Below are positions 2,595 through 28,578 of a stretch of 32,000 nt of DNA, piece by piece (positions within the stretch are counted from its first letter, which is position 1; every line of letters begins with the position of its first letter). The position numbers and the translations under genes were made by a program. The notes under the pieces were generated by a model. The model was not told where the DNA came from. It was given only the letters and a program-made list of their open reading frames with translations, and searched no databases. The stretch comes from Promethearchaeum syntrophicum. Lineage in GTDB: Archaea; Asgardarchaeota; Lokiarchaeia; Sigyniarchaeales; Promethearchaeaceae. The stretch is from NCBI RefSeq assembly GCF_008000775.2, contig NZ_CP042905.2, positions 1,980,001 to 2,012,000 on the forward strand. Reading direction: 5' to 3'.

Positions 2595-4562
2595 ATGAAA
2601 ATAAAAATCAAATTCTTAACAATAATAATTGGTTTCTTGTTGGGATGCTCAACAATTCTCTCGAGCGTTAACCCAGTGTTTTTTTCTTCAATAATAAAGG
2701 GTGAATTTGAATTACAACCGAATTCTGCAGCACCAGTCTGGGACGAAATAGGGATCGTGATAAATTCCAACTTGGATTTTGTTTCCGAAGCTACAACTGG
2801 TGACGGTTCAGTAGGAAATCCTTGGAGAATTCATGGTAAATATATAAATGCATCAAACGGGGTTGGTATAAACATTACACATACAACTGATTATTTCGTG
2901 GTGGAAGATAGCGTTATTAAAAATGCTTCACATGGGATTTACATTAACAATGTGTCAAATGGGATATTAAAAAATATTACGATTTATAATTGTAGTGAGA
3001 CGGGAATCTTTTTAGATGGTCAATCAAACACTTTTTTTAATGGTGTTCATGAAATTGAGATAAGAGAAAATGTAATTCATGGTATTTCGGGGGCTTCAGA
3101 GAACTCGGGAAACGGAATCCGACTTGATTGGGAGTGTAAGAATAATTACATCTACAATAATACCATATACGATAATTTTGGTACTCAGAACGGAACCGGA
3201 AATGGTATTTACATTGTGGGGGATGCTTTAGATGGTGGTGGGTGTAACAATAACATCATCGAGAATAATTTGATATATGATAATACTGCAACTGTTGCAA
3301 GAAAGGCTGGTAACGGGGTTTTCTTCGATGGAGACTGTATAAATAATGAAATAAAAGGCAATACAATCTTCGGAAGCTCAAGTGTATCCGGTTTTTGGTC
3401 TGGGAATGGAATTTGCTTTTTACAACATTGCTCAGCTAATACTATCTCCAACAATACGATTTATGATAATGAAGGAGGGGTTGAGGGCATTCCATTACAA
3501 GATGGATATTCTGGTAATGGGATTTCAATTTTCTCCGATAACGACTATACAGATATAATTAATAATACAATTCACAGTAGTCATGGAGGAACAAGTAGTT
3601 ATCAAGGGAATGGTATTTATATTACTGACTCGACCAATTGTAATATCAAGGATAATATTATCTATGGAAATATGGCCGGAGATGGGACAGATTCAGGTAA
3701 CGGAATTATGACTCAATTCGCAACCAACCTCAATATTTCAAACAATTATATCTATGAAAATTATGGAAATGATAAATATTATACGGGTAACGGTATTCTT
3801 CTCTCTAGTTATTCTGATAATAGTTATATTGCAGAAAATATAATTCGGGATAGTATTGGTGGAACAAATCAAAGTGGCGGTAATGGGATAATTCTCACAA
3901 ACAGTAATGATAGTATAATTACGCAGAATAATATATCATATTGTACTGGAGATTTTTATATTGAATCAGGATCCGGGATTTTAATCCGAGTTGGTGATAA
4001 TATCAACATTAGTTATAATAAGATAGACTTTTGTTCGGGTTACGCGGTGGAACTTGGATTCTCAGAAAATTGTAATGTAAGTTATAATTCATTTTACGGG
4101 AATGGTGAATATCCTTGTATTTTGAGTTATGTGGATAACATCATTACTCCGAATTATTGCTTGTTTTTGGGCACAATATTGAATTATGTTGATACAGGTA
4201 ATTGGGATGGGATAGCTACTTTAAATTGGACTGGGCCATCATGGGCAGAGTTTTATTACGTCTTTAGGTCGACTTCAGAAATTACTACTGAGAATTATAT
4301 GAATTTAACCCCTATTGCAACTGTGACAACAACAACCTTCACGGATAACTTAACGGAAGAGGGCACATATTATTATGCGATACTGGCAGCAAATGCAACT
4401 TTAAATGGAACTATCTCCAATTGTATTGCAGGAGAAATCCTCATTGCAACCTCAGGAAATGAAATCCCGTTTTCCATCCTTCCGGGATTATTGATGGCGG
4501 TTGTATTTGTTGTGTTTAAAACCTATTGGCTGAAAAAAGTTAAAAAAGTTAATTGCTCCTAA
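2595..4562 (+). CDS. Secreted or anchored right-handed parallel beta-helix (PbH1/NosD-like) surface protein with an FN3-like module and a C-terminal membrane anchor
   Basis: N-terminal signal peptide with a lipobox-like LLGCS. There are nine GNGI and one GSGI at about 30-residue spacing (hand-counted residues 172, 202, 239, 269, 307, 338, 368, 398, 428, 458), embedded in NNxIxxNxIYxN coils. Many N-x-S/T sequons. The C-terminal segment reads PFSILPGLLMAVVFVVFKTYWLKKVKK (hydrophobic helix plus basic tail). Confidence 0.8.
   Translation: MKIKIKFLTIIIGFLLGCSTILSSVNPVFFSSIIKGEFELQPNSAAPVWDEIGIVINSNLDFVSEATTGDGSVGNPWRIHGKYINASNGVGINITHTTDYFVVEDSVIKNASHGIYINNVSNGILKNITIYNCSETGIFLDGQSNTFFNGVHEIEIRENVIHGISGASENSGNGIRLDWECKNNYIYNNTIYDNFGTQNGTGNGIYIVGDALDGGGCNNNIIENNLIYDNTATVARKAGNGVFFDGDCINNEIKGNTIFGSSSVSGFWSGNGICFLQHCSANTISNNTIYDNEGGVEGIPLQDGYSGNGISIFSDNDYTDIINNTIHSSHGGTSSYQGNGIYITDSTNCNIKDNIIYGNMAGDGTDSGNGIMTQFATNLNISNNYIYENYGNDKYYTGNGILLSSYSDNSYIAENIIRDSIGGTNQSGGNGIILTNSNDSIITQNNISYCTGDFYIESGSGILIRVGDNINISYNKIDFCSGYAVELGFSENCNVSYNSFYGNGEYPCILSYVDNIITPNYCLFLGTILNYVDTGNWDGIATLNWTGPSWAEFYYVFRSTSEITTENYMNLTPIATVTTTTFTDNLTEEGTYYYAILAANATLNGTISNCIAGEILIATSGNEIPFSILPGLLMAVVFVVFKTYWLKKVKKVNCS
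3108..4002 (+). repeat. Protein-level repeat array of about 30-residue beta-helix units, each ending in GNGI
   Basis: GGA AAC GGA ATC (GNGI) first occurs at 3108-3119. Ten copies follow at spacings of 30, 37, 30, 38, 31, 30, 30, 30 and 30 residues by hand count. Confidence 0.7.
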
Positions 4563-4643: not shown

Positions 4644-7600
4644 TTAAATATCTGGCATCAAATTAAGGAGGGTGGCAATAACTTCTCCCATTTCAGTTAG
4701 GGAATTCCCTTCATTTATTAATTCCTTTGAAAGTAGCGAAGTTATAATTGGCACAACAATTGCAATTTTAGTATTTTTCTTAAGGTGTTTTTCGCTTAGT
4801 GGACCACTCTTATATAATTCTTTTAGAACTAATCTTTCACTATGGGTTAAAGGATCAATCATAGGTTTAAATTGTTCGATGAGATATTGTGTTCGAGGAT
4901 TCACCGCAAATAGAACTTGTTCTTGTCTTAATTTTTCAATCACATTAAAGGTATCTACTTCTTTCCTACCATAACCGGCCATTCTCACTATCATTTCTCG
5001 TAAACGGAATGCATTATTAAAAGATGATTCAGCTTCTTTTATAACTAGCGCAGTTGTAGATTTCTTTTTAACATTGCTTAAATGACTCTTAGCTTTTGAA
5101 GGGATTACATTATGTGGATAAAGCAAATATGCAAATAGAGTCTTTTCAATTAATTCCAAAATCGGCTCAGGACTGGGGATTTGTCCAGAGAAATGTTCTA
5201 CTGTGGACAAATATTTTGTCTCAAATTCGGCATTAAATTGTCTAATTTTGGAGCGTAAAGTAGGACTTGCTGATTTTAATAATAAAACAGCTGTTCTGAC
5301 ATAATATCCTTCAATTACAACAATTTTAAATTGCTGGTAGGATAATTCTTCAAGACCTGTTTTTTTATCACCTATCGCAGCAAATGCGTTCTGTTGAGAA
5401 TCTTCTACCCTATTTCCAATTTCTTTTCCAAAAGTTGATATTGCTGATAAAAATCCACTAATTAATGTTGAATCAATAGGCAATTCAGTGAAAGTTTGTG
5501 AAAATATGCTGGTGCTTGTTTCTTTATGCATAATTAATACATATTGCATATTTTCGATATCTCCAAATCTTCGATGGATATCCAGTAATGCTTTTCTTTG
5601 TCGATTTCGCTTAGGAACTACATAACCTCTATAAATCCCTGCAGAAAGAATTACTACTACCCCAATCCCAATTAAAATTGCTTGAATATTATCAATTATT
5701 AAAATTCCATAGTTTACCACTCTTACTTCATAGTCAATATCTGTATCAGAAGAACTTACACCCGCAAAAATCCCTGATGTCACGAAAACAATTTCTACAG
5801 TAAATTCACCAGTATCATCAAATTGAATTGTTTTTTCAGCAATTCCTTCCTGATTAGTCACCGCTGTATATTGTGATTGAATAATCGAATCACTATCCTT
5901 GACAATAAAAAGGATATTTTTCCCTTCAATACTTACATTGAAATCGTCAGTGAGTCTAACAGAAAAAGCAAATTCACCCGCAAATTTTTGCTGCAAATTA
6001 TTAGATAACATAATCAAGTGCGTAACCATTTGGGGTAAAATTGTAAAATTCATATAAATGACATCACCTGCAATTTTATCTGTCCCTGTGAATATAATTG
6101 TGATGTTTAGCCAAGTACCAGAATCTAAAGAAATTGTATACGGAACCAAAATACTAGCGTTTTCATCAAAGAATCCAGTATAAACTTCATTATCACTATC
6201 ATAATCATATATTACTTCAAATGGTAAACCATAAAAAGTCTCGTTAGTTGATGATGAAACGAAATTTGCAGATATATTCAACTGAATCTCTTGACCCATT
6301 GTAAGAGTATCTGCCAACTCGGTAACATTTAGAACTACATCCCATTTTGGTAACACATCAAAGGTTTTCTCCACACTTGCATACTCTACTGTAGATGTTC
6401 CGGCATAATCCATGAAAAATGTAATATTATCATGGCCATCTGCAATATTAGCTAAATAATAGCTTAACGAACCATTTTGATCTACTGCAATCTGCTGAAT
6501 AAATGTTGGATTAAGAAAATTTCCATCGTACCAAGAGATTAAAGTTAAATAAATCCCAGAATATTGTGTGACGTCTGTAATATTTATTGTTCCATCAATA
6601 GTTATATCATAACCAACTCGTTCTTCGGATGTGTAAATTAAAGATAATGAAACAGGGATTTTTCCCAATATTGTTTTTATTGTGGAATTTAAGGAACCCT
6701 TAACAGTACTATTTCCATAGTAAGTTACGTTTATTTCGATCGAGTCATCTGCGTAATTATAGGGGACGATTTGTGAAAAAGTCGCTATTCCATTTGAATC
6801 TGTTGTTTCTACAATATTGAAAATATCTGTACTTGCATAGGTTATGGTGATAAAAAGATCTGAATCAGGAATTGATGAACCATTAATCATCATTAAATTG
6901 AATTGAATATCTAATGATGAACCTATCCGAATATTCTCAGGCACATTTAAATAGATTTTGGTTGAATTCTTGGAAAATATTTCTAATCCAATTTGAATCC
7001 ACGAAGCATTTGCACAATTATATTTTGAAGCGTTGACCATAAAATCATAAATACCCGGTAGAACATATTCAGTTTCAGTTTCTAAAACGATCTCTGTATG
7101 ATAAACTCCTGAAAAGATGAATGAAAAATTCCCAGATAATGCAATTGAACTATTACTTGCATATATTAATGCCCAAGTTAGATTCGCATCATTTAACGGT
7201 AAAGGGTTAGATTGATCGAGAACATTTCGATAATTCGCATAAAATTCAAAATTTCCTCCTTCATATAACTCCACACTAATACTTGTTGCATCAATATCAG
7301 TCAGAATTGGAAGAATTTCCGTTGATATTTCAATGTAAGTTGAATCATAACCATCAACTGAAGCAGATATAGTAAGGGTATAATTGTATTGTCCAGAATC
7401 CGTAGCATTTAATCCAGTTGCGTCTATGGTGATATTATAGAGACCTTTATCTACAATATTTTGTGTTTCTCGATATACTTCAATGCCATAAAAAACATTT
7501 TCGCTTCCATTGAATTTACCTGATATTATTGCATTTTCCAGTGGGAATTGGTTTGTATGATTTGTTATATTAACCTGAATAATTGAACGCGAAGCATCAT

Positions 7601-10505
7601 TTACATAAGGTATGTTATACGAATCCATATAAGCAGAAAAAATGCTTGTATTTGTTGCCCCGTAAGTAATATTTAAATTAATAGGATATCCAGTCAAGTT
7701 TATCCATGAATTCAACCTTTGATAATCGAAGAACGGTTTTCTTATCATTATATACACTTCATAATCATCAACAGGGACGGAACGCGTTTTAAAGCTAAGA
7801 GTATAATTACCTTCTGCATTTAAAGAGGGGTCTTCATAAACTCTATCAATTAAATATACATAAGGTGGCCAATCAGTCCCCCATGTATTATTTGTTGCAT
7901 TATTATAAATTCTAACATAATTTTCAGCAAAAGATAAAGGTGTGCCATCAGATTGTGAAAAACTAAAATAAAATTCACCCAGATCTCCCGAATTAATTAT
8001 ACCTGGTTCGCTTTTTAATGTAGCAATAGAAGTCCGCCACATTTCAAAATATGTCGTTCTAACACCAATTCGTAATGTTTGAGATGTGCTAGCGTTTGTA
8101 TCATTCCACATTCCAATTATTTGATAATTACCAACACCCATTGAGTCATTTACTATCCATGGGGTAGTTAAATTATCCGATTCGGATGGAAAATATTTTG
8201 GAAAATTATTTAACCATGCACCTGAAGCATTTCTAATACTTATATTATAATGTCCTTCATCGGGGCTAGTTTGGTTTGCGATGATGTTTGTGTTATTAAG
8301 ATTATAGAATCTAGGGGATATTCCAGACAGATGTTCAATTTTCAAATTACTTAAATAATTTGGAGAGGTAAAAGATGCTATCCAAGTTCCATTAATATAT
8401 GATCCTTCATCTTGGGGGCTCTCTGCCGTTGCATCAGCAATAGTAAGATTTTGATAATGTCCAGAATTTGCTGTTCCGTTTGTACGGATCCCTTGAGCAT
8501 AATTTGGATTACGCCTTCCTAATGGGTCCCATCCACCAGTCCAATTCCAATCTACTGAATTTTTTCCTAAATTATCCCAAGCTGGAAGATCATTTATTGT
8601 AAAATTATATCCAATGGGATTATAATTTTCTAGTAAAAAAATATCAATTAACAATTGATCAAAGGTAATTGAATTGTTGAAGGTTACATTCCATTGAATT
8701 CTGTAGATAGGCTCGTCATCAATATCATTAACAAAGTAACTTGCTTCTGCCTTATTCTCATTCAATTTGTTTATATACATTAAACTCTCAAATTCTAGTG
8801 TTGATCCGTTATAATCTGGATTGGTAACTTGAAATGCTAATATAAACTCATTTTTAATATCATCATACGGATCTTTTGTAGTTATTTCAAATTCCGTTTG
8901 AGAATTCCAATCGGTTCCATTATATCGCTGAAATCCTGCGGTTGCTAAATTATCCACTTTATAAATGGGTTTTAATGAAATATTGTCAAACATTACAAGA
9001 AAATCATCTTTATAAGTTTTAAATGGGTTTAAATTAATTATCCCAATTGCAGAACTAATCGTATCGTTTGAATTTAGAATATTTTTAAAACGGGAAGTCA
9101 AATTATATTGGAAGTTAACTGTTTGTTCCACAGATCCAGATGTAAAATCATCATTTAACCAACTTAGGGGGTAGAAAATTTCTTCACTTGTCCCTGAGTC
9201 TCCAAGAAATGCAAATAACAACCAATAATTCAAATCCGTGGATGTTTTGAAATCTTTTACAGAACATTCAAAACTTAATTCTCCGATTTTATACTGATCT
9301 TCTTCAACTGCCCTGATAGCTATTAAATCAAAAATAACCCTAACCTCGTCATCAGTTTCGTCAATATTTTCCATCCAAATCCCAAAATTTAGGGAATGAT
9401 CAACCAAATTTGAATTTATTATATCAGTTATATCAAAAATCCGATATATAAAATCATGTGTTCCAATTTTAGAAGTTTCATTATCATATTCAATAGTTGT
9501 GGCTGAGGCATTACTGTTTGGGACTCCATTGGTATCTACTCTACCATCAACATAGTTTCCATCAACCTGACAAATCACTGCGAAATTATCACCTTCTTCA
9601 TATCCAAGGTTTTCTACTCTCCACCCCACAATTAACTCTACTTTTTTTGGTAAAAATGAAGTTTCCCACCCAAAATTTGTTTCCCATGCAATAGAGGGAT
9701 TTCCTAAAGTGTATTGGCTAGTTCCTGCTTTAATATAAGCACCTAAATTACCAACATTCCATTGAAGATCAACAGTAGCGGTCTCGGTTACACCTCCATA
9801 AGGGTTGTCGTAATTTTTTCCCCATTCCGGATCTTCATTGAATTCTTCCCATATTGGATGTTGTGTATCCCCATTATAGATAAAGTCGGTTTCCCATATA
9901 GAATGATCATCGCTAGGTTTTGATATTTCTTGAGTCCATTCTGAATATGCTTGATAGGGAACTAGAGGATTTTCAGGTTCCCCAATACCCTCAATAACTA
10001 ATTTTTCATTGGAGATATAATTGTTAAAACCAAAACTAGAATCACTATCTTTTGGATAATTTGTAACTGCAGTCCATGGGTCTCCGATAGTAATATTGTT
10101 ATCATTTAATAATTCATGAGATTTATATAAGGCTGAGATATTAAGATGCTCTTGTTCAAAAATCCATCCTTCTGGAACTTCAAGAGTCATATTTTCATTA
10201 TCAATATCTAGAATTGATTTTTGACCATGTTGCTGATCAATGAATGGTGCTTGACTAATAATCGATTCTGAAACATTAAATTGAGAAACATTATTACCAA
10301 TAATTGTAATTGGTTCAATAATTGGCGCAATTTCTTCCTGTGTTTGTGGTGAATATGTCAAATCTTGTTCCTCTGAAACCAAATCATTTTCGGAAATATT
10401 CTGAATATTTCCCATATTTGTATAAATGTTCAATGGCAAGAAACAAAATAGAAACATGAAAACGTTTAATATTTTCATGAATTGCTTTATCTTTTTATTT
10501 TTCAT
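4644..10505 (-). CDS. Giant (1953 aa) type-I single-pass surface protein: signal peptide, a roughly 1570-aa glycoprotein-like ectodomain, one TM helix and a 328-aa cytoplasmic tail
   Basis: An uninterrupted 5.9-kb ORF. The N-terminal signal peptide is MKNKKIKQFMKILNVFMFLFCFLPL. I hand-count about 60 N-x-S/T sequons. Beta-sandwich-like modules recur with a T(D/N)xxG signature (TTDSNGIATFSQ, AVDQNGSLSYY, VTNQEGIAEKTIQF). The TM helix ILIIDNIQAILIGIGVVVILSAGIY is followed by RGYVVPKRNRQRK. Confidence 0.85.
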   Translation of the reverse strand: MKNKKIKQFMKILNVFMFLFCFLPLNIYTNMGNIQNISENDLVSEEQDLTYSPQTQEEIAPIIEPITIIGNNVSQFNVSESIISQAPFIDQQHGQKSILDIDNENMTLEVPEGWIFEQEHLNISALYKSHELLNDNNITIGDPWTAVTNYPKDSDSSFGFNNYISNEKLVIEGIGEPENPLVPYQAYSEWTQEISKPSDDHSIWETDFIYNGDTQHPIWEEFNEDPEWGKNYDNPYGGVTETATVDLQWNVGNLGAYIKAGTSQYTLGNPSIAWETNFGWETSFLPKKVELIVGWRVENLGYEEGDNFAVICQVDGNYVDGRVDTNGVPNSNASATTIEYDNETSKIGTHDFIYRIFDITDIINSNLVDHSLNFGIWMENIDETDDEVRVIFDLIAIRAVEEDQYKIGELSFECSVKDFKTSTDLNYWLLFAFLGDSGTSEEIFYPLSWLNDDFTSGSVEQTVNFQYNLTSRFKNILNSNDTISSAIGIINLNPFKTYKDDFLVMFDNISLKPIYKVDNLATAGFQRYNGTDWNSQTEFEITTKDPYDDIKNEFILAFQVTNPDYNGSTLEFESLMYINKLNENKAEASYFVNDIDDEPIYRIQWNVTFNNSITFDQLLIDIFLLENYNPIGYNFTINDLPAWDNLGKNSVDWNWTGGWDPLGRRNPNYAQGIRTNGTANSGHYQNLTIADATAESPQDEGSYINGTWIASFTSPNYLSNLKIEHLSGISPRFYNLNNTNIIANQTSPDEGHYNISIRNASGAWLNNFPKYFPSESDNLTTPWIVNDSMGVGNYQIIGMWNDTNASTSQTLRIGVRTTYFEMWRTSIATLKSEPGIINSGDLGEFYFSFSQSDGTPLSFAENYVRIYNNATNNTWGTDWPPYVYLIDRVYEDPSLNAEGNYTLSFKTRSVPVDDYEVYIMIRKPFFDYQRLNSWINLTGYPINLNITYGATNTSIFSAYMDSYNIPYVNDASRSIIQVNITNHTNQFPLENAIISGKFNGSENVFYGIEVYRETQNIVDKGLYNITIDATGLNATDSGQYNYTLTISASVDGYDSTYIEISTEILPILTDIDATSISVELYEGGNFEFYANYRNVLDQSNPLPLNDANLTWALIYASNSSIALSGNFSFIFSGVYHTEIVLETETEYVLPGIYDFMVNASKYNCANASWIQIGLEIFSKNSTKIYLNVPENIRIGSSLDIQFNLMMINGSSIPDSDLFITITYASTDIFNIVETTDSNGIATFSQIVPYNYADDSIEINVTYYGNSTVKGSLNSTIKTILGKIPVSLSLIYTSEERVGYDITIDGTINITDVTQYSGIYLTLISWYDGNFLNPTFIQQIAVDQNGSLSYYLANIADGHDNITFFMDYAGTSTVEYASVEKTFDVLPKWDVVLNVTELADTLTMGQEIQLNISANFVSSSTNETFYGLPFEVIYDYDSDNEVYTGFFDENASILVPYTISLDSGTWLNITIIFTGTDKIAGDVIYMNFTILPQMVTHLIMLSNNLQQKFAGEFAFSVRLTDDFNVSIEGKNILFIVKDSDSIIQSQYTAVTNQEGIAEKTIQFDDTGEFTVEIVFVTSGIFAGVSSSDTDIDYEVRVVNYGILIIDNIQAILIGIGVVVILSAGIYRGYVVPKRNRQRKALLDIHRRFGDIENMQYVLIMHKETSTSIFSQTFTELPIDSTLISGFLSAISTFGKEIGNRVEDSQQNAFAAIGDKKTGLEELSYQQFKIVVIEGYYVRTAVLLLKSASPTLRSKIRQFNAEFETKYLSTVEHFSGQIPSPEPILELIEKTLFAYLLYPHNVIPSKAKSHLSNVKKKSTTALVIKEAESSFNNAFRLREMIVRMAGYGRKEVDTFNVIEKLRQEQVLFAVNPRTQYLIEQFKPMIDPLTHSERLVLKELYKSGPLSEKHLKKNTKIAIVVPIITSLLSKELINEGNSLTEMGEVIATLLNLMPDI
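4647..4850 (-). other. C-terminal winged helix-turn-helix-like module of the giant protein
   Basis: LTHSERLVLKELYKSGPLSEKHLKKNTKIAIVVPIITSLLSKELINEG follows the MarR/ArsR-type wHTH pattern LTxxExxVLxxLxxxGPLSxxxL. An earlier stretch, FRLREMIVRMAGYGRKEVDTFNVIEKLRQEQVLFAVNP, may be a second winged helix. Confidence 0.45.
5190..5549 (-). other. Longin/roadblock-like alpha-beta sandwich domain in the cytoplasmic tail of the giant protein
   Basis: The pattern is beta-beta-alpha-beta-beta-alpha: YVLIMHKETS, SIFSQTF, STLISGFLSAISTFGKEIG, LSYQQFKIVVIEG, YVRTAVLLLK, PTLRSKIRQFNAEFETKY. It aligns by eye with the standalone ORF at 26873-27292. Confidence 0.5.
5631..5705 (-). other. Single transmembrane helix of the giant protein
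   Basis: A 25-residue hydrophobic stretch (residues about 1601-1625) with a cluster of Arg/Lys on its C-terminal side, which by the positive-inside rule places the tail in the cytoplasm. I checked the codon mapping against the sequence: AGA for Arg1626 is tct at 5628-5630. Confidence 0.7.
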
Positions 10506-10705
10506 AATGGATTAATCCCCTATATCTATATCAAGATGATTCAAACTACCCTCGTAAATTAAATAGCGAATCACTTTGTAATAATAAATTTCTATATTTC
10601 TTATTGAGAATTTAGTTCAATTAAATTTATACCTTAACGAAAAAAAAAGGAATACAAAATTAGAGTAAAGAAAAATTGAAAAACTGCAAAAAATTCATTT
10701 CCATA

Positions 10706-11395
10706 ATGGAGAATTACAAGAAAGAATTCATAAGTTTCATGATTGAATCTGGTGTGTTATTATTTGGTGATTTTATAACAAAAAGTGGACGTGAAACACC
10801 CTATTTTATCAATACTGGAAATTATAATACAGGAAACCAAATGAAGAAGCTTGGAAAGTTTTATGCTGCAGCAATAGATGAGAATTTCAGTGCTGAAGAA
10901 GTACAAGTTTTATTTGGTCCCGCATATAAAGGTATCCCTTTAACCATAACAACATCTATAGCATTAGGTAATGAATCCAATAGAGATATCTCTTTTTGTT
11001 TTAATCGAAAAGAATCAAAAGATCATGGGGAGAGAGGGAATTTTATTGGAAAGAAATTGGAAAACGGAGATAAAATAATTATTGTAGAAGATGTTTTAAC
11101 TTCTGGTATTTCAGTACGTGAATCAATTTCAATGCTTAATAAAGCTGCATTTATTCATATCCTTGGATTAGTTGTTTCGGTAGATCGAATGGAAAGAGGC
11201 CGAACTCAAAAAAATGCTTTGAAAGAAATTCGAGATCAATACAATATTAAAACATGCGCTATAGTAACCCTTGATGAAATTATCGAATTTCTTCATAATA
11301 AAGAAATAAATGGTAAAGTATACATTGATGATGAAATGAAAAACAAGATTGATGAATATAGAGCTAAGTACGGTGCAATTGATGAAGAAATCTAA
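10706..11395 (+). CDS. pyrE: Orotate phosphoribosyltransferase
   Basis: Matches the E. coli-type PyrE as I remember it: FGDFITKSGRETPYFINTGNYNTG, LFGPAYKGIPL, FCFNRKESKDHGERGN, IIIVEDVLTSGIS, VDRMERG. The ATG at 10706 (MENYKKEF...) is preferred over the TTG at 10676 listed in the track. Confidence 0.93.
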   Translation: MENYKKEFISFMIESGVLLFGDFITKSGRETPYFINTGNYNTGNQMKKLGKFYAAAIDENFSAEEVQVLFGPAYKGIPLTITTSIALGNESNRDISFCFNRKESKDHGERGNFIGKKLENGDKIIIVEDVLTSGISVRESISMLNKAAFIHILGLVVSVDRMERGRTQKNALKEIRDQYNIKTCAIVTLDEIIEFLHNKEINGKVYIDDEMKNKIDEYRAKYGAIDEEI

Positions 11396-12041
11396 AATAA
11401 ACATTTCAAAGAAACAAAAAAAGGAAGCAATTCTTGCAGTGCTAATGGTCGTTATAGCAGTCGGAGGAACATTTGGGTTTCTAGGAATTTTGAGGTTAAC
11501 TCTAAAAACAGATAATCCTCTGGTTGTTGTTACATCAGAATCGATGGTCCCTACTATAGATGTTGGAGATTTATTGGTTATTCAAGGTAAAGATCCTGCT
11601 GAAATTGAAAATGAGACAATAATTCTTTATGATTCCCGAGGTTTATGGCCTAACCGTTATGTAGAAGAGCCAATTGTACATAGAGTTGTAGACAGATATG
11701 AAAATGAAACTGATGGTAAATGGTACTTTATTACTAAAGGAGACAACAATGACGATACAGATCCTCCAGATGGTGCATTTGGCTCCGAAATAGCCGTTCC
11801 AGAAGAAAGAGTTATCGGAATTGTAAAAACGATTATTCCGAAAATTGGGTTAGTTAAAATATGGATGGATAGTACTCCAGGGATTTCAACAATAATTCTA
11901 GTCGGACTGAGTATTGCTTTATTAATAAGCATTATTTGGGATATAACCCATCCAGAAGAAGATAAAAAAGAAGATAAAGAATTAGAAAATGAAGCAAATA
12001 TTGAATCCGAAGAAAAACCAGAAGTTGACTTAGGAATTTAG
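11382..12041 (+). CDS. Signal peptidase I, archaeal/eukaryotic Sec11-type (S26B), copy 1
   Basis: N-terminal TM anchor, catalytic Ser box SESMVPTIDVGD, the His in EPIVHRV, a GDNNDDTD box and a C-terminal TM helix with an acidic tail. The ATG at 11382 (MKKSKINISKKQKKEA) aligns with the start of copy 2 and overlaps the pyrE stop by 14 nt. Confidence 0.85.
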   Translation: MKKSKINISKKQKKEAILAVLMVVIAVGGTFGFLGILRLTLKTDNPLVVVTSESMVPTIDVGDLLVIQGKDPAEIENETIILYDSRGLWPNRYVEEPIVHRVVDRYENETDGKWYFITKGDNNDDTDPPDGAFGSEIAVPEERVIGIVKTIIPKIGLVKIWMDSTPGISTIILVGLSIALLISIIWDITHPEEDKKEDKELENEANIESEEKPEVDLGI

Positions 12042-12122
12042 TTTTCCATTAGTTCTAAAAAATAGAAAATTTTTTTTTGCTAGTTCTTTTCTTTATATCA
12101 CAAGCATTAAGTTGTGAAAAAG

Positions 12123-12806
12123 ATGAAAAAGCCCAAAAAGACTATAGCAAAGAAACAAAAAAAGGAAGCATTTACTACATTATTGCTGATTGTAATGGCT
12201 ATTGGAGGCACTTTTGCTTTTATCGGTATTCTAAAAGTAAGTTTAAAGACAGAAAACCCTCTGGTTGTAGTAATTTCAGATTCAATGGAACCGACTATAG
12301 ATATTGGAGATATGTTGGTCATTCAAGGAAAAAACCCCGCTGAAATTGAAAATGGAACTATAATTCTTTATGATTCTCGGGATTTATGGCCGAATTTTTA
12401 TGTACCTGAGCCAATTGTACATAGGGTCGTTGAGAGATATTATAATAATTCCGATGAGAAATGGTATTTCATTACACTAGGAGACAATAATGACGATACC
12501 GACCCTCCAGATGGACCATTTGGAGATGAAATTCCAGTTCCGGAAGATAGGGTTATTGGAACAGTGAAATTAATTATTCCAAAAATTGGGAAAATCAAAA
12601 TGATGTTAGATGAAGCTAATGATGAAGTTCCTGGACTAACTACGATAATTCTCTTCGGGTTGAGTATTCTTCTAATTTTAAGTATTATGTGGGATTTAAC
12701 TCATCCAGAAGAGAAGGAAGATAAAAATTTAATAAAGCAGAAAGAATTAGAAGATAAAAAAAATGTTACACCTTTAGAAAGGTCAGAAGTTGATTTGGGA
12801 ATTTAG
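12123..12806 (+). CDS. Signal peptidase I, Sec11-type (S26B), copy 2 (tandem paralog)
   Basis: SDSMEPTIDIGD, EPIVHRV and GDNNDDTD are all retained, with the same TM-catalytic domain-TM-acidic tail layout. The start is ATG 12123 (MKKPKKTIAKKQKKEA); GTG 12114 is possible. Confidence 0.85.
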   Translation: MKKPKKTIAKKQKKEAFTTLLLIVMAIGGTFAFIGILKVSLKTENPLVVVISDSMEPTIDIGDMLVIQGKNPAEIENGTIILYDSRDLWPNFYVPEPIVHRVVERYYNNSDEKWYFITLGDNNDDTDPPDGPFGDEIPVPEDRVIGTVKLIIPKIGKIKMMLDEANDEVPGLTTIILFGLSILLILSIMWDLTHPEEKEDKNLIKQKELEDKKNVTPLERSEVDLGI

Positions 12807-15781: not shown

Positions 15782-16650
15782 ATATATTATTAAGAAAGAA
15801 GGTAATTTTTATTTTGACTTCTTTTCAACTAAAAAAAAATAGCATTTCTTCTAATTTATGATACAATTCTAGTTAAAAATTAAAAAAAGATAGATTAGAG
15901 CTAGGCCTATCTGTCGGATTAGACACTACGCGGAGAATATTTATTAAAAAATTAATAAATGCATTGAATTACATTCAATTTATTCTATGGCTAATTCGAT
16001 CGATTAACCTAACCCTATATAAATTTAAGAGTTCAAATATTTAAAACTATCTGTCATTTCCTTTCTGTAATGAGTATATTGTACAATAATTAAGACCGTG
16101 TTTTTTCCTACAGTGAGAATAATTGTTAGTTTTTTCGATTAGAGAATAAAATTTAAAGAAAAAAATGATTAAGCCCGTATTTTTGAAATTTTTTTCTTCA
16201 ATCTTAAGGATGAAGATTTAAAAAAAACACAGTCATCCTTCTGAATTTATTAACGAGGCAATAAAATTTTTCAGAACGGAAGAAAAAATCATTAATTTTC
16301 TTCGGATATTATTATTTTCTATGCAAATTGATCATAGATTTCCTAAAGCCATAAGGTGATTATTTCAATAAAATTCGATATTTTAAAAATATTATAGGTT
16401 AAATTTTAAGATCATAACAAAAAATCTGTAATTTTCGATATGTGGGATAATTTGGGAATTATTAATTTTTCTCAAGGTATGTGGTAAATACTTTAATGCC
16501 CTTCACAAAAACAATATTTCTCGATCAATTTGATGTTTGAATTTTACATTTTTATCGTGATTTTCATTTTTATCGGGTGCTATCTAAAATGAAAAACCAA
16601 GCAGAAAAAAAATAGAAATTTTATTCAAGAATTTTAAATTGATTTTATCA

Positions 16651-22124: not shown

Positions 22125-22520
22125 ATGACTGAAAAAAAAGATGAATCCATGATGTTGTCCAGAATGCGGACACTGCTTGCTTTAGAAAGGAATTTCCTTG
22201 CTGAAGAGCGAACTGCCTTAGCAGAATTCAGAACTGGATTAGCTTTAATTTTAATTGGCCCCCCAACGAGTATAATATATATTTCATCTTCATTACAAAC
22301 TTCAACTGCTTTATGGATGAACATTATTCTATATATTTTCATCGGTTTAATCGTGATTTGGGGCATTTACATGGCTGTTCGGGCATATAACAAAGCAAAA
22401 ATGTTACGCTATGAACGAAAGAAAATAAAAAATAGAGAAAAACAAATATTTGATTCTTCTCCTGAAGCTCAAGATTTACTAAGGGATTGTTTATTTGAAG
22501 AAGATTTTTGTAAAGATTAA
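22125..22520 (+). CDS. DUF202 (YidH-like) small membrane protein
   Basis: LALERNFLAEERTALAEFRTGLALIL matches the DUF202 signature ERTxLAxxRTxLAL and is followed by hydrophobic helices. Confidence 0.7.
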   Translation: MTEKKDESMMLSRMRTLLALERNFLAEERTALAEFRTGLALILIGPPTSIIYISSSLQTSTALWMNIILYIFIGLIVIWGIYMAVRAYNKAKMLRYERKKIKNREKQIFDSSPEAQDLLRDCLFEEDFCKD

Positions 22521-23434
22521 ACTGTAAAGTTGAATTTTGGAGAAGATATTTTTGTTATTTTTCTATTTGAATTAAAAATGTAAACAAAATCAATAATCGG
22601 ATTATTCTCTAAGGGCCATGTATATAGTTTGAGATAAGTTTCAAAAAAGAGGATGAATTTTTTTACCTCATGTGGATTCATACCAAAATTATTTCCCTTT
22701 TCTTTTCTGAGTTCTTTTTCTTGTTGTTGACGAAACTGAATAACATTTTCTACCGATTCTGCCAACAAAACAATTTTTAAATCCATGAAATTATATGAAT
22801 CACTTAAATCATTCACTTGGGAGTTAAGATATTGATCAATTTTAGATAAATTCTCTGCGGAAATTGGTTGCGCAAATGTGAAAACTCCCTCAATTATAAC
22901 AAAATCAGGTTTTTTCTTAACAATCTGCCATTTATTTTCGGGAAATCTGTCATCTATGCTTTTATCAAATTTTGGAATTGAGATTGAATTCTCCCAGTGA
23001 TTTAAAGATTCAAAAATCCTTTTCACTAGCGGATTATCATACATTAAGCGCGATTCTAAAGATGGATCAATATCCTTTGCGAGTTCTAACCTCTCTTCTT
23101 TGGTTGGATATAAGTCATCCATAGAAAAATTAATTGTATAATACCCTTGATTTTGGAGAAGTAAAGATAAAAATCTAGCTAATGTTGTTTTTCCTGAACC
23201 GTTGACCCCCGCAATCCCTAAAACTACTGTATCTTTCTTTTCCTTCAAGATTTCTAACATTTGCAAATAAATCGGAACAAATTGAAATTTTAATAATTCA
23301 ATTAAGTCTTCTATTTCCAATATTAAATTTAATTTTTCCAAACAATTCTGAAAGAGAATAATCTTATTTTCATTTATAAAATTTTCAGATTTAAGAATTA
23401 ACTCAGAAAAATCTTTATGGTTCATAAAACTCAC
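22517..23434 (-). CDS. P-loop kinase, D-glycerate-3-kinase (GLYK)/yeast TDA10-like branch of the uridine-kinase/PRK superfamily
   Basis: Walker A GIAGVNGSGKTTLARFL, then FSMDDLYPTKEERLELA, IPKFDKSIDDRFPE and DFVIIEGVFTFAQP. These parallel the remembered TDA10/GLYK blocks (SxDDFYLT, PKYDKS..GDR, ILEGWFLGF). Confidence 0.55.
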   Translation of the reverse strand: MSFMNHKDFSELILKSENFINENKIILFQNCLEKLNLILEIEDLIELLKFQFVPIYLQMLEILKEKKDTVVLGIAGVNGSGKTTLARFLSLLLQNQGYYTINFSMDDLYPTKEERLELAKDIDPSLESRLMYDNPLVKRIFESLNHWENSISIPKFDKSIDDRFPENKWQIVKKKPDFVIIEGVFTFAQPISAENLSKIDQYLNSQVNDLSDSYNFMDLKIVLLAESVENVIQFRQQQEKELRKEKGNNFGMNPHEVKKFILFFETYLKLYTWPLENNPIIDFVYIFNSNRKITKISSPKFNFTV

Positions 23435-23459
23435 AAATTTCGCTAAAACGGTTATTTAG

Positions 23460-24401
23460 CTATTTAGAATTATTCTTATTATTATTCCCATTATTACTCT
23501 TATTGGGAATTTCTTCTGATTTCTCAAAATTAAATAGATCTTCCAAGATTTTTTGATTTAACCCTAAGAGATTAGAAATTTCATCGCGAAATTCAGTAAG
23601 ATTGTCTACGTCTGTTTGAATTGATTTATATTTTTTATTCATTTCCTCAATATTTTTCTTTTTTTTCTCATATTCGCTATTTAAATTGTCGATGAAACCA
23701 CTAAATTTATCTAAAACCTGTTCATTGTATTTCATTATATTGTTTTTTAACAAAAACTGACTGCTGAAATTATCAAAGGTTCCTAATAATTCTTTAATTA
23801 ATGAGCCCATCGAAATGATAGTATCTTGTTTTTTATTGATTTCCCGCTTAAATAATTTGAATTTAACTTCCAAATCTTCATATTCGTTTTCCAATGAACT
23901 CTTTTTTTGCTCTAAATCTTCAATCTCTTCGCTTAGATTCGAGATATTTGTCCTTTGTATCTGTAGTTGTTCGTTTAAAACAGTAATCTCATTTTCTTTT
24001 TTTTCTAGAAGATTGTTTGCATGAGATACTTCAGATTTTTTTATTTCTATGCTATTTTTTACTGCTTTTCGCTCAGCTTGTAAGCTTTCCAGTTTTTTAC
24101 TTGTAGTTTTTTCTTCTTCCTTATTTTTTTTGATTGATGCATTCAATTGTTTGACTGTTTTTTTTAATTTTTGTTTTTCTGTTCTTAGTTCCTCTATATC
24201 ATTTGATTTTTCTTTTACCAGCTCATTTAGAACAATTAAATCGGTTTCTCGTTTTGAGTATTCTTTTTTTGATGAAGCTATTTTTTCTTCAAATTCTTTC
24301 TCTCTTATTTGAAGGGCATTAATTGTGAATTTTTTATCTCTAATTTCTTGAATATCGGAAGAATCGCCTTCAGTATCATCAATAGTAGTCTTTTCACTCA
24401 T
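23460..24401 (-). CDS. Coiled-coil protein (acidic head, long K/E-rich heptad rod, Asn-rich tail), function unknown
   Basis: 313-aa ORF. There is a continuous heptad-like K/E/L/I pattern over about 250 aa. The head is MSEKTTIDDTEGDSSDIQE and the tail is NKSNNGNNNKNNSK. It lies 25 nt upstream of the kinase gene on the same strand. Confidence 0.65.
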   Translation of the reverse strand: MSEKTTIDDTEGDSSDIQEIRDKKFTINALQIREKEFEEKIASSKKEYSKRETDLIVLNELVKEKSNDIEELRTEKQKLKKTVKQLNASIKKNKEEEKTTSKKLESLQAERKAVKNSIEIKKSEVSHANNLLEKKENEITVLNEQLQIQRTNISNLSEEIEDLEQKKSSLENEYEDLEVKFKLFKREINKKQDTIISMGSLIKELLGTFDNFSSQFLLKNNIMKYNEQVLDKFSGFIDNLNSEYEKKKKNIEEMNKKYKSIQTDVDNLTEFRDEISNLLGLNQKILEDLFNFEKSEEIPNKSNNGNNNKNNSK

Positions 24402-25311: not shown

Positions 25312-26520
25312 TTAAATATGGATTAATGGACTATAAGGAATTCCCAAAGCGGTTAAAAGAACGAAAACTAAGGAAATCATTATCGGCATTAAAATATTAT
25401 CTGAAATCTCTAAGGGTTTTGGCGTAATTAAATCAGAAAGGACAAAAACAACTATACTGCCAACTAACGCATATATCCACCCTACAAAAATAATCATTGT
25501 TCCGAAGGCAATTATCATTCCTGCAATAGTGCCTTCAATCGATTTCCCATTCCAAAAATATCTCCTATGTCCAAATTTCATCCCAATTATACTTGCTATC
25601 GGGTCTGCGAAGGATCCTAAGCACATTGCAGCTAAAAACGGAAATGGAGGTAAAATCCATGCGGCTATAAAGTAGCCCGTTGCAAAATGTGTGTAGGATC
25701 CAAACGTATTCTTTTCCTTTTCGCGCATGATTGACTGTACTTTTTTTTGAAATAGAAAAAATATATGACCCGATAATCGGGTAAGCTCGATAGTGAACAT
25801 AAATATAACCATACCATACATAAATATGATTATCGTGCTTTGTCCCATAGGGGGTGTTTTTCTTATAAAAATATTTTCAATGAAGCTGGTTCCATCTGTG
25901 TATTCAAAATAACCCTCTAAAAGTTGTTGATAATGTTCAACCCATAAGTCTCCGTTAACTTGCGTAACTAAATATTGTCTTATTGCAAATAAAATAGAAA
26001 TAACTAAAATAAAAACAAACACATGCCAAAATTTCCGTCTGTAATCGATTTTTTGCTTAATTTCTCCTGAAATTTCAAGCGTATTCACAACAGGCTCTCT
26101 AATAATTTCGACTTTTTTTGCACCCCGAGAGTATTGGATAATATTCACAATAATCCCAATAAGAAGATAGGACACAGGAATTGCAGATAAAATAATAGCC
26201 GGATGATCTTGTTTCCTGAGAGTCCATTGAAATCCAACCCGAATATAAATTAGAAAAATAACAATGATAAGAATAATGGCCATAATTACTAAATTTAAAG
26301 GTTCACCATAAGTAGATTCAAAACCATGATTTGTCTTCGTTTTTTCTCTATTCTTAAAATTAATAATCATAGATTGAATCCCTTTTGTCAATAATGCAAT
26401 AAAAGTTATCAATAATGAACTATAAACAATAATCTGCATAAAAACAACAATTAAGACTGCCATAATTCCACCTATTAAAAAATTGAACAATTTAAATTGA
26501 AAATACTTTTTATAAATCAT
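25312..26520 (-). CDS. Polytopic membrane protein with a C-terminal dolichol/polyprenol-kinase-like domain (CTP-dependent, Sec59/VTE5/CdsA superfamily)
   Basis: SFADPIASIIGMKFGHRRYFWNGKSIEGTIAGMIIAFG matches the DxxAxxxGxxFGxxK...KSxEGS motif block of that superfamily. There are about 10 hydrophobic helices. Confidence 0.55.
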   Translation of the reverse strand: MIYKKYFQFKLFNFLIGGIMAVLIVVFMQIIVYSSLLITFIALLTKGIQSMIINFKNREKTKTNHGFESTYGEPLNLVIMAIILIIVIFLIYIRVGFQWTLRKQDHPAIILSAIPVSYLLIGIIVNIIQYSRGAKKVEIIREPVVNTLEISGEIKQKIDYRRKFWHVFVFILVISILFAIRQYLVTQVNGDLWVEHYQQLLEGYFEYTDGTSFIENIFIRKTPPMGQSTIIIFMYGMVIFMFTIELTRLSGHIFFLFQKKVQSIMREKEKNTFGSYTHFATGYFIAAWILPPFPFLAAMCLGSFADPIASIIGMKFGHRRYFWNGKSIEGTIAGMIIAFGTMIIFVGWIYALVGSIVVFVLSDLITPKPLEISDNILMPIMISLVFVLLTALGIPYSPLIHI

Positions 26521-26872: not shown

Positions 26873-27292
26873 TTACCATCCTTTTAAGTCATTAAATTTA
26901 AGCTCAATGATACGATCTATCATTTTGCCAAGCTGTTGGGTTTCGGGTGCTCGATCTTTAAATGATTGTTTTGCTTCCATGAATATTGTTGTAGCCAGCT
27001 GTCGTAATTGCTTCATTTTCTGTTCTCCATGATAGAAAAACACAAAGAATATCTGTTTTTTTATTGAAAAAAATTCCTTGGATATGACAATAATTTTGCT
27101 TGTATTTTTGGGTTGAACATTTTCTCCAAAAGTAATGGTTGCTATATCCTGTCTGAATAGAGTTTTTCCTATGGTCCCTACCGCGGATAGTAATCCACTT
27201 AATAGAGCTGCATCTATCCCCTCAAAATCGAATTCTCGGGAATAGAAGGGAATCCCCGAATCATCACTTATTAACAAACACTTTAATGGCAT
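26873..27292 (-). CDS. Standalone longin/roadblock-like domain protein (139 aa)
   Basis: The protein begins directly with a beta-strand: CLLISDDSGI, PFYSREF, helix DAALLSGLLSAVGTIGKTLF, strands IATITFG, KIIVISKEF, IFFVFFYHG, then C-terminal helices. This is a longin-type order. It is paralogous by eye to the tail domain of the giant protein. Confidence 0.55.
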   Translation of the reverse strand: MPLKCLLISDDSGIPFYSREFDFEGIDAALLSGLLSAVGTIGKTLFRQDIATITFGENVQPKNTSKIIVISKEFFSIKKQIFFVFFYHGEQKMKQLRQLATTIFMEAKQSFKDRAPETQQLGKMIDRIIELKFNDLKGW

Positions 27293-28526: not shown

Positions 28527-28578
28527 TCTTTTTTTTTTTATATTTTTTATATCGAGAACTTTTTATGGTAGAGTTAAA

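Follow-up and report, generated by a model that had tools for sequence, protein, structure and literature searches.

The minus strand of the window (the whole 32,000-nt stretch of DNA analyzed in this study) carries an ORF at positions 4644–10505 that encodes a 1953-aa protein of Promethearchaeum syntrophicum MK-D1 (QEE16527.1/WP_147663402.1). In GenBank, RefSeq, and UniRef, QEE16527.1 is named a carbohydrate porin. I rejected this name because it has no support of any kind: no porin-type match was obtained in Pfam, NCBIfam, or PDB, and the presence of one transmembrane (TM) helix also conflicts with a porin, which is an outer-membrane beta-barrel. Loki cells have a single membrane (PMC9834061). 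QEE16527.1 is absent from the main text of the paper on the MK-D1 glycoproteome. Scanning the window for tRNAs and Rfam families gave no matches. What kind of protein does this gene encode?

In the hydropathy profile, only two hydrophobic peaks were found, at aa 9–27 and aa 1601–1625. The former belongs to a signal peptide that spans roughly the first 30 residues (positions 10416–10505, minus strand, as are all features of this gene), having a basic n-region, MKNKKIK, followed by the hydrophobic core. The latter, ILIIDNIQAILIGIGVVVILSAGIY (5631–5705), is a single TM helix with a Kyte-Doolittle peak of 2.46. Between them lies an acidic, N/S/T-rich ectodomain (aa 31–1600; 5706–10415), and a 328-aa tail with a basic start, RGYVVPKRNRQRK, follows the TM helix (aa 1626–1953; 4647–5630). 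This anatomy and its coordinates agree with the original prediction, which was made from the letters of the sequence and described a 1953-aa ORF with a signal peptide, an ectodomain of about 1570 residues, one TM helix, and a 328-aa tail. The ectodomain has 60 N-X-S/T sequons as compared with 25 ± 4.5 in shuffled sequences, and the tail has none. In 19 orthologs, the ectodomains have 947 sequons in total (about twice the shuffle value, with enrichment in all 19), while the tails have 20 as compared with 31.6 expected. In the same orthologs, the TM helix is followed by four to eight K/R residues within 20 residues and preceded by zero to three. The confinement of the sequons to the ectodomain and the enrichment of K/R after the TM helix both indicate, at the level of sequence, that the ectodomain lies outside the cell and that the tail is cytoplasmic, as had been presumed. 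The ectodomain appears to end in Ig-like/macroglobulin-type beta-sandwich domains. The membrane-proximal one (aa 1512–1572; 5790–5972) was matched by Pfam Big_1 with a sub-threshold E-value of 3.7e-4 in the window protein. Among 12 orthologs, Big_1 was found in 11 (best 2.7e-9), MG4 in seven, and MG2 in three.

The tail is a cassette of predicted modules. A basic juxtamembrane helix comes first, then a roadblock/longin sandwich and a helical connector, and last two winged-helix (wH) modules. The basic segment next to the membrane, with the N-terminal helix (tail aa 1–27; 5550–5630), has a net charge of +5 and an invariant Pro6. The predicted roadblock/longin-fold core (tail aa 28–145; 5196–5549) contains the most conserved motif, D..LISGFLSAISTFG, and a low-confidence loop at tail aa 67–95. 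The helical connector (tail aa 146–190; 5061–5195) carries a family-wide motif, W.G...F...L.E..F..SL..PH, with LLYPHN in this protein. The winged-helix-like module 1 (wH1; tail aa 191–258; 4857–5060) has a conserved FAINPRT sequence and an AlphaFold2 (AF2) pLDDT of 87–94. The winged-helix-like module 2 (wH2; tail aa 259–328; 4647–4856) is MarR/TrmB-like with an acidic wing.

In the AF2 model of the tail (mean pLDDT 79, core pLDDT 79–94), which was made from a shallow alignment of nine sequences, the secondary structure elements are H7–27, E28–35, E41–46, H54–76, E95–98, E101–107, E111–117, and H123–139. Thus, the beta-beta-alpha-beta-beta-alpha pattern read by eye over tail aa 28–147 in the original prediction holds, with one more strand and an N-terminal helix added by the model. 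The result is a five-stranded alpha-beta-beta-alpha-beta-beta-beta-alpha sandwich, as in the roadblock/longin fold. All of the 50 best Foldseek matches in PDB are longin or roadblock domains, including those of AP sigma/mu, zeta-COP, TRAPP Bet5/Trs23, the Rag C-terminal domain, LAMTOR, and MglB; the E-values are modest (2e-4 to 1e-2), with a TM(target) of up to 0.63 and a high rmsd. The Roadblock/LC7-MglB-LAMTOR domains and the longin domains (TRAPP Bet5/Trs23/sedlin, AP sigma/mu-N, zeta-COP, and Rag C-terminal) are the only structural matches of the tail. Like them, the domain is an alpha/beta/alpha sandwich with its elements arranged as beta-beta-alpha-beta-beta-beta and its central helix conserved. 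It also has both the N-terminal and the C-terminal helix of full-length roadblock proteins (PMC10933270). On the other hand, the tail lies below every Pfam threshold for these families. It had no match at E ≤ 1 to the Pfam longin/roadblock HMMs (Robl_LC7, Longin, Sybindin, Sedlin, and MAPKK1_Int), and no significant family emerged when the tail, the whole protein, and each of four different profiles were compared with Pfam, NCBIfam, and the PDB sequences. Neither Pfam nor NCBIfam covers the cassette.

A standalone 139-aa paralogous protein, DSAG12_02376, is encoded in the same window (26873–27292, minus strand). BLASTP aligned it with the tail over 41 aa (E 4e-6), and a profile-profile comparison of the two families using hhalign gave a probability of 94% and an E-value of 8.7e-8 over 43 columns. 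The homology noticed earlier between these two proteins is thus real by sequence, and its extent is limited to about 43 residues corresponding to beta1-beta2-alpha1. The 139-aa family is named Roadblock/LAMTOR2 in UniRef and has no match in Pfam; therefore, the chain of homology from the tail to roadblock proteins rests on the UniRef label. The tail's own relatives gave sub-threshold Pfam matches to Sybindin (1.1e-3), Longin (3.7e-3 and 0.011), and MAPKK1_Int (0.073), all of one clan. May the fold assignment be an artefact, in which AF2 and Foldseek placed an unrelated alpha/beta domain near longin by chance? The shallow modeling alignment, the Foldseek E-values of only 1e-4 to 1e-2 with a high rmsd, and the absence of a direct HMM match leave some room for this. 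Against it, one superfamily accounts for the whole set of top Foldseek matches, the homology to a roadblock-labeled family was obtained independently from sequence, three different longin/roadblock Pfam models surfaced in the relatives, and the order of strands and helices matches the fold exactly. An artefact is therefore very improbable. As modeled, the first tail domain belongs to the roadblock/longin fold class, as the original prediction had proposed, and I read the tail cassette as a new membrane-anchored variant of this class.

Is the protein common in Asgard archaea? Full-length orthologs (27–43% identity, 1908–2043 aa), aligning end to end, were found in 29 species-level genomes, and every informatively named genome among them is Asgard. 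They include L. ossiferum and MAGs labeled Sigyn-, Hod-, and Hermodarchaeota. Thus, a survey proposed in the original prediction, for orthologs keeping the order of ectodomain, TM helix, longin domain, and winged helix, found them. The mean identity to the orthologs is 0.46 in the longin part, 0.39 in the tail, and 0.26 in the ectodomain. These comparisons indicate that the protein is conserved across Asgard lineages and that the tail is its most constrained part. A profile search with the cassette collected 1068 clusters at E ≤ 1e-3, mostly having the ectodomain-TM-cassette organization. In nearly all of the best 150 of these clusters, a TM helix closely precedes the cassette, and the ectodomain length varies. 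Nearly every family member has its TM helix about 25–30 aa before the cassette, and most full-length members have an N-terminal hydrophobic segment at the position of the signal peptide. The wide family retains wH1 (profile positions 2–240), and wH2 is missing from most members. TM-less proteins were also found: a leucine-rich repeat (LRR) protein with the cassette, a tandem double domain, a PCI protein with the domain and a wH, and 203-aa soluble proteins that join the longin-like domain to a TrmB-type wHTH. The cassette thus appears behind many different ectodomains as well as with soluble LRR, PCI, or wHTH modules. As the TM-less versions show, it is a portable, cytoplasmic module. The tandem duplication of the domain in a soluble relative fits a dimerizing fold. 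The Asgard-wide orthology, the conservation of the tail, and the large cassette family with its soluble members had all been overlooked in the original prediction. The scan of genome contigs for family loci took in only the close family, because the distant alignment has no conserved stretch of 7–10 columns.

The protein has a Sec signal peptide, a sequon-rich extracellular region, and a C-terminal TM anchor, which are features of surface glycoproteins. Archaeal S-layer-type glycoproteins with a C-terminal anchor are likewise built from a signal peptide, an Ig-like ectodomain rich in sequons, and one TM helix that anchors the C-terminal end. Is it then a structural envelope protein, whose tail only anchors or oligomerizes it (for example, by a tie to lokiactin or by clustering in protrusions) with no signaling or GTPase role? 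It would then count among the still unidentified "complex surface proteins" that S-layer-less Lokiarchaeia carry. The strong sequon enrichment, the Ig-like/MG-type stalk domains, and the length of about 1.9–2.0 kaa kept across Asgard lineages are in keeping with this, and an ortholog lies at 5.708–5.721 Mb of CP104013.1 in L. ossiferum, which has no S-layer but has such surface proteins (PMC9834061). Asgard cells have no ordered S-layer (PMC9834061), and MK-D1 yielded no S-layer candidates (PMC11284389). However, conservation is highest in the tail rather than in the ectodomain, and the occurrence of the cassette in soluble LRR or PCI proteins is unexpected for a mere anchor. S-layer anchors have, as a rule, very short cytoplasmic tails. 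The tail of the Asgard protein is a folded cassette of 328 aa, better conserved than the ectodomain, and therefore does not fit this rule. I consider the purely structural explanation rather unlikely.

As for the two wH-like stretches noticed at the end of the tail, they were recovered at the fold level. A separate AF2 model of the C-terminal 179 aa (pLDDT 87) shows the three-helix and hairpin pattern twice, and its best Foldseek matches are MarR-type wHTH proteins and the tandem-wH protein ScpB, with E-values of only about 0.1. The modules have the wHTH fold but neither a MarR HMM match above the cut-off (E 0.081; 13.3 bits versus 24.6 in the window protein) nor a conserved basic helix or wing. 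It had been suggested that the tail could be a DNA-binding module. Then the protein might be a membrane-tethered transcription regulator, binding DNA either in the tethered state, like ToxR or CadC, or after regulated proteolytic release of the tail, with the longin-like domain as a ligand-binding or dimerization sensor. The resemblance of the C-terminal module to MarR/TrmB-type wHTHs and the 203-aa relatives with a TrmB-type wHTH would suit such a regulator. Two S24/S26-like peptidase genes also adjoin the gene, possibly by coincidence. In contrast, the wing of wH2 is acidic or neutral, its recognition helix is variable among 19 orthologs, and its net charge is about −1. Because of this wing and this variable helix, DNA binding by the membrane-tethered wH2 is judged unlikely from its sequence. 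Moreover, the absence of wH2 from most of the wider family, the sub-threshold level of every Pfam wHTH match, and the protein-binding types of the wH domains in relatives (PCI and UFL1/DDRGK-like) all speak against a regulator, which seems improbable. Another thought is that the tail acts in cis as an adaptor for sorting or vesicle biogenesis, recruiting ESCRT or other membrane-remodeling machinery to bring the glycoprotein into protrusions or extracellular vesicles, with the tandem wH modules as in ESCRT-II and the longin domain as in coat adaptors. In structure, the tail indeed comes closest to longin domains, namely those of AP sigma/mu, zeta-COP, and TRAPP; one relative has a weak EAP30 match (0.071), and Asgard cells make protrusions and vesicles (PMC10933270 and PMC9834061). 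However, the wH modules have no significant link to ESCRT-II, no ESCRT genes were found nearby, and analogy is the sole basis of this proposal. I regard such an adaptor as hardly probable.

Does the cassette serve a small GTPase? The original prediction proposed that the protein could couple to a GTPase-type module and spoke of neighboring small GTPases. A neighboring GTPase was rejected for the window, in which no small GTPase gene was found; the sole P-loop ORF (22517–23434) is kinase/AAA-like and has no DxxG or NKxD motif. No small GTPase adjoins the gene at 29 ortholog loci or at the loci of soluble relatives, and no GTPase domain is fused to the cassette among the family members inspected. 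A survey of gene neighbors, as had been suggested, gave no conserved neighborhood: synteny among the 29 loci and the window is limited to the genus level (PRTase and S24-like peptidase). Genomic association, as a proxy for the GTPase-platform class, was seen neither as fusion nor as adjacency. Certain roadblock/longin domains have non-GTPase roles, as in SNARE longins, dynein LC7, and profilin-like proteins. The GTPases of MK-D1 have no prenylation cysteines, and as a rule their genes do not share operons with roadblock (RB)/longin genes (PMC10933270). Roadblock/longin domains are known to form dimers that serve as platforms for GTPases (Levine 2013, as cited in PMC10933270). In platforms such as MglB, Ragulator, TRAPP, and Mon1-Ccz1, the domains pair as homo- or heterodimers by way of the central helix and the edge strand. 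By analogy, the tail domain probably dimerizes, and coupling of the tail to a small GTPase can be inferred only from the same analogy.

Ragulator and SRalpha-SRX/SRbeta dock a small GTPase at a membrane via a roadblock/longin platform. They may serve as precedents for a membrane-held platform, with LAMTOR1 anchoring the roadblock dimers in Ragulator. They have a separate lipidated or TM anchor subunit and no ectodomain, whereas the anchor, the platform, and the extracellular part form one polypeptide in the Asgard protein. Longin SNAREs (Sec22b, VAMP7, and Ykt6) also have a cytosolic longin domain and a single TM anchor in one chain, but in the reversed order (longin, SNARE motif, and C-terminal TM helix), being tail-anchored and lacking an ectodomain; conversely, a SNARE coiled coil is missing from the Asgard protein, whose wH modules have no SNARE counterpart. 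Asgard-specific shuffling of longin and roadblock domains is likewise seen in NPRL2-like longin proteins and GTPase-RB/longin fusions, including a longin domain with a small C-terminal domain. Such fusions are described in Liu et al. (bioRxiv 2020.10.19.343400) and Tran et al. (PMC10933270), and the architectures in their main texts are cytosolic, with GTPase, two-component, TRAPPC3, and DENN partners. No giant ectodomain-TM-longin-wH-wH protein appears in these two main texts. Unlike roadblock/longin families, the cassette has a TM helix directly upstream, a 1600-aa extracellular region before it, and two wH modules after it. A literature search found no description of this architecture, in line with the original statement that no characterized archaeal protein is known to have it.

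Taken as a whole, my tentative explanation, held with a little less than even confidence, is that the gene encodes a conserved, Asgard-specific type I surface glycoprotein whose cytoplasmic roadblock/longin cassette is a dimerizing docking platform. In this view, docking or output would be the task of the cassette, as the constant module, and input or adhesion that of the variable N-terminal part. The cassette may pair with itself or with free roadblock/longin proteins, and the dimer would form a platform on the inner face of the membrane to which a cytosolic partner is recruited. As this partner, a small GTPase would be the most attractive; Asgard archaea have many of these, and they carry no lipid anchors. 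The winged helices would most likely be protein-protein scaffolds rather than DNA binders. A broader and more doubtful idea is that the family forms a large, Asgard-specific class of single-pass receptors, in which diverse ectodomains are mounted on a membrane-fixed roadblock/longin platform for recruiting or regulating small GTPases devoid of lipid anchors, or free RB/longin partners.

Asgard genomes encode small GTPases and roadblock/longin proteins by the dozen, and what these proteins do in the cell is unknown. The GTPases have no lipid anchors of the kind that bring eukaryotic GTPases to membranes (PMC10933270), and the cells, which have no S-layer, bear unidentified complex surface proteins on protrusions touching partner organisms (PMC9834061). 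With a cytoplasmic roadblock/longin cassette as its best-conserved part, this conserved giant surface glycoprotein is a concrete and testable candidate for a membrane dock of the GTPase/roadblock machinery and for a physical connection from the cell surface to the interior. If the receptor reading is true, the eukaryotic logic of membrane protein, longin platform, and GTPase, as in Ragulator-Rag, SR, and cargo-adaptor-Arf, would have a prokaryotic forerunner here, and the receptor class could mark membrane regions such as protrusions and contacts with syntrophic partner cells. The cassette represents a large family that lies outside Pfam and NCBIfam and is mislabeled as a carbohydrate porin in the MK-D1 record. 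Defining this family would improve the annotation of every Asgard genome.

The giant gene on the minus strand (4644-10505) encodes a protein of 1953 aa, whose public records (QEE16527.1 / WP_147663402.1 / UniRef100_A0A5B9DCC9) carry the name "carbohydrate porin". This name is not supported by any search and is probably an annotation error; the full-length protein has no porin-type Pfam match and zero NCBIfam or PDB sequence matches. A 100-aa ORF on the plus strand (4672-4974), antisense within the tail-coding region, is most likely spurious, given the strong minus-strand conservation of the tail.

By hydropathy, the giant protein has only two hydrophobic segments, a signal peptide at aa 9-27 and a segment at aa 1601-1625, which maps exactly to nt 5631-5705, where the original prediction had placed a single TM helix. 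The tail is encoded by nt 4647-5630. Acidic residues lie before the helix and RGYVVPKRNRQRK after it; in 19 orthologs, the 20 residues that follow the helix include four to eight K/R, against zero to three on the preceding side. The ectodomain has 60 N-X-S/T sequons versus 25 +/- 4.5 expected from shuffled sequences, while the tail has none. The same 19 orthologs have 947 sequons in their ectodomains (about 3.2 per 100 aa, roughly double the expected number) and 20 in their tails versus 31.6 expected. Thus, an N-out, C-in orientation is well supported, and independent support comes from relatives of the cytoplasmic cassette which have neither a TM helix nor a signal peptide. The ectodomain itself gave only weak Pfam matches. 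In 12 orthologs, the membrane-proximal region matched Big_1 (11 of 12, best E 2.7e-9), MG4 (seven), and MG2 (three). These are the only domains assigned in the ectodomain, and they are consistent with a stalk built of Ig-like beta-sandwiches.

The tail was modeled with AlphaFold2 on a nine-sequence alignment (mean pLDDT 79). The elements are H7-27, E28-35, E41-46, H54-76, E95-98, E101-107, E111-117, and H123-139, with a low-confidence loop at residues 67-95 and further helical and hairpin elements after H123-139. This predicted alpha-beta-beta-alpha-beta-beta-beta-alpha order is the same as the topology of full-length roadblock proteins in Asgard roadblock crystal structures (PMC10933270). In a Foldseek search of the model against the PDB, eight matches had E<=1e-3, and all of the best 50 were longin or roadblock domains (AP-1/2/3 sigma and mu-N, TRAPP Bet5/Trs23/sedlin, zeta-COP, the C-terminal domains of RagA/C, LAMTOR, Fuzzy/Inturned, dynein LC7, and MglB), with target-normalised TM-scores up to 0.63. 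The expectation that the first tail domain is of the longin/roadblock type is supported by both the predicted topology and the structural matches. The E-values are modest but the best 50 are unanimous, and an artefactual fold is very improbable. The Pfam search with the tail sequence gave nothing but MarR (E 0.081), and profiles of the cassette family found no longin or roadblock match among PDB sequences. Scattered sub-threshold Pfam matches in cassette relatives fell on three models of one clan, Sybindin (1.1e-3), Longin (3.7e-3 and 0.011), and MAPKK1_Int (LAMTOR3, 0.073). All in all, the architecture and fold class described here are very likely correct.

The tail had also been aligned by eye to a standalone 139-aa roadblock-family ORF (26873-27292, minus strand). 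The homology is real (BLASTP E 4e-6 over 41 aa; 94% probability and E 8.7e-8 between the profiles of the two families), but it is limited to beta1-beta2-alpha1. This ORF is 100% identical to DSAG12_02376 of Promethearchaeum syntrophicum MK-D1, a cultured Asgard archaeon; it matches no Pfam or NCBIfam model and is very well conserved in Promethearchaeota (43 database matches with 58-100% identity at full length). Its neighbours are an acidic ORF of 95 aa and multi-TM proteins of 402 aa (25312-26520) and 342 aa (27498-28526, TM plus zinc ribbon), with no adjoining GTPase.

The two winged-helix-like modules (wH1 and wH2) proposed for the tail were borne out at the fold level only. When the C-terminal 179 aa were modeled separately (pLDDT 87), two helix-helix-helix-hairpin units emerged, and Foldseek ranked MarR-family wHTH proteins and ScpB, which has tandem wH domains, highest (E about 0.1). 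Wing residues of wH2 are acidic or neutral in the alignment of 19 orthologs (e.g., IDDLNQISETG), its recognition-helix position is variable, and wH2 has a mean net charge of about -1; the strongly conserved FAINPRT motif lies in wH1. Since most of the wider family lacks wH2 and the tail is tethered to the membrane, sequence-specific DNA binding, as once suggested for the tail, is unlikely. A membrane-tethered transcription factor is improbable.

Is this architecture conserved in other archaea? In a pattern and tblastn scan with one genome for each GTDB species, 29 full-protein ortholog loci were found, among them loci of 'Ca. Lokiarchaeum ossiferum' and of MAGs labelled Sigynarchaeum, Hodarchaeota, Hermodarchaeota, and Promethearchaeota; one MAG labelled Bathyarchaeota supplied two contigs. 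The orthologs are kept over the whole protein (1908-2043 aa, 27-43% identity, about 1800-2050 aligned residues). Averaged over 17 orthologs, identity rises from 0.26 in the ectodomain and 0.27 in the TM helix to 0.39 in the tail and 0.46 in its roadblock/longin part, so the cytoplasmic cassette is the most constrained region. That the protein is purely a structural component of the cell surface, with a tail that does no more than anchor it, is a rather doubtful alternative. The gene neighbourhood is conserved within the genus only. On the plus strand at 10676-12806, a PRTase-like gene and a tandem pair of paralogous 230-aa ORFs that weakly match S24/S26 (signal-peptidase/LexA-type) peptidases are divergent from the giant gene. 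In two Promethearchaeum sp. MAGs, the PRTase gene and the first of the peptidase-like ORFs also adjoin it, an arrangement not kept in more distant Asgard genomes. A convergent gene (2595-4562, plus strand) encodes a 655-aa right-handed beta-helix/NosD-like protein, which may be another secreted or surface protein and is absent at the corresponding position in one of these MAGs (L002). Between the M28 peptidase and SIR2 genes, about 850 bp (15782-16638) contain no complete ORF of at least 40 aa, and tRNA and Rfam scans run over the whole window gave no match in this stretch.

When 1.84 billion cluster representatives were searched with the cassette profile, 1068 proteins matched at E<=1e-3, 612 of them at E<=1e-10. 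Among the non-fragments of the best 150 of the 1068, nearly all combine an N-terminal hydrophobic segment with a TM helix that lies 25-30 residues upstream of the cassette. The best 150 range from about 800 to 2833 aa in total length. Many of these match profile positions 2-240 only (the roadblock/longin domain, the connector, and wH1), some with about 200 further residues. The informatively named members looked up are Asgard throughout (Promethearchaeota, Lokiarchaeia, Helarchaeota, Sigynarchaeota, and Thorarchaeota); the one exception is a MAG protein with the label 'Deferrimicrobium'. Proteins without a TM helix also carry the cassette or its first domain: behind LRRs in P0091 and P0214 (514 aa, full cassette), in two tandem copies (aa 20-149 and 215-322; possibly a covalent pseudo-dimer) in P0126 (424 aa), between a PCI domain and a UFL1/DDRGK-type wH in P0192 of Helarchaeota (723 aa), and with a TrmB-type wHTH in P0217-P0219 (203 aa). 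These combinations are the hallmark of a portable cytoplasmic module, with variable 'input' parts placed N-terminal to it. The C-terminal winged helices of P0192 match the UFL1 (E3_UFM1_ligase, 1.1e-10) and DDRGK (1.9e-6) models, an unexpected juxtaposition of UFMylation-type modules with a longin-like domain. In P0214, from a Sigynarchaeota-like genome (L028/L036), the longin-wH-wH cassette is fused straight to the LRR, and more LRR genes lie near. The window also has two LRR proteins (28498-29808 and 29994-31133, both plus strand).

The analyses established the topology, fold class, conservation pattern, and modularity of the giant protein. As dimers, members of the roadblock/longin superfamily serve as binding platforms for small GTPases (Levine 2013, as cited in PMC10933270). 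From this known behaviour, the cassette would dimerise and form a docking platform fixed to the inner face of the membrane, a reading which is plausible but tentative. A small GTPase is an unlikely partner, although the link is attractive because MK-D1 GTPases lack lipidation cysteines (PMC10933270). The neighbouring small GTPase(s) assumed in the original prediction are not among the window ORFs, and none was found at the ortholog loci or beside soluble relatives; the link is not supported by any genomic association there. Since the GTPase genes of MK-D1 generally do not share operons with roadblock/longin genes (Tran et al., PMC10933270), the missing neighbour is weak evidence either way. 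The sole P-loop ORF of the window, a 305-aa protein (GVNGSGKT) with weak PRK/uridine-kinase and AAA matches, is not a small GTPase; it follows a 313-aa coiled-coil protein, and the two together span 22517-24401 on the minus strand. A cis-acting sorting adaptor, as another role for the protein, is improbable.

Roadblock and longin domains are known classes, famously expanded in Asgard archaea. The ectodomain-TM-roadblock/longin-wH architecture is not described in the main texts on Asgard roadblock/longin proteins and ESPs, or in those on Asgard cell architecture and the MK-D1 glycoproteome. Three aspects appear to be new: the size and Asgard restriction of the cassette family, the tail as the conserved core of a giant surface protein, and the covalent wiring of a roadblock/longin platform to a giant extracellular region via one TM helix.
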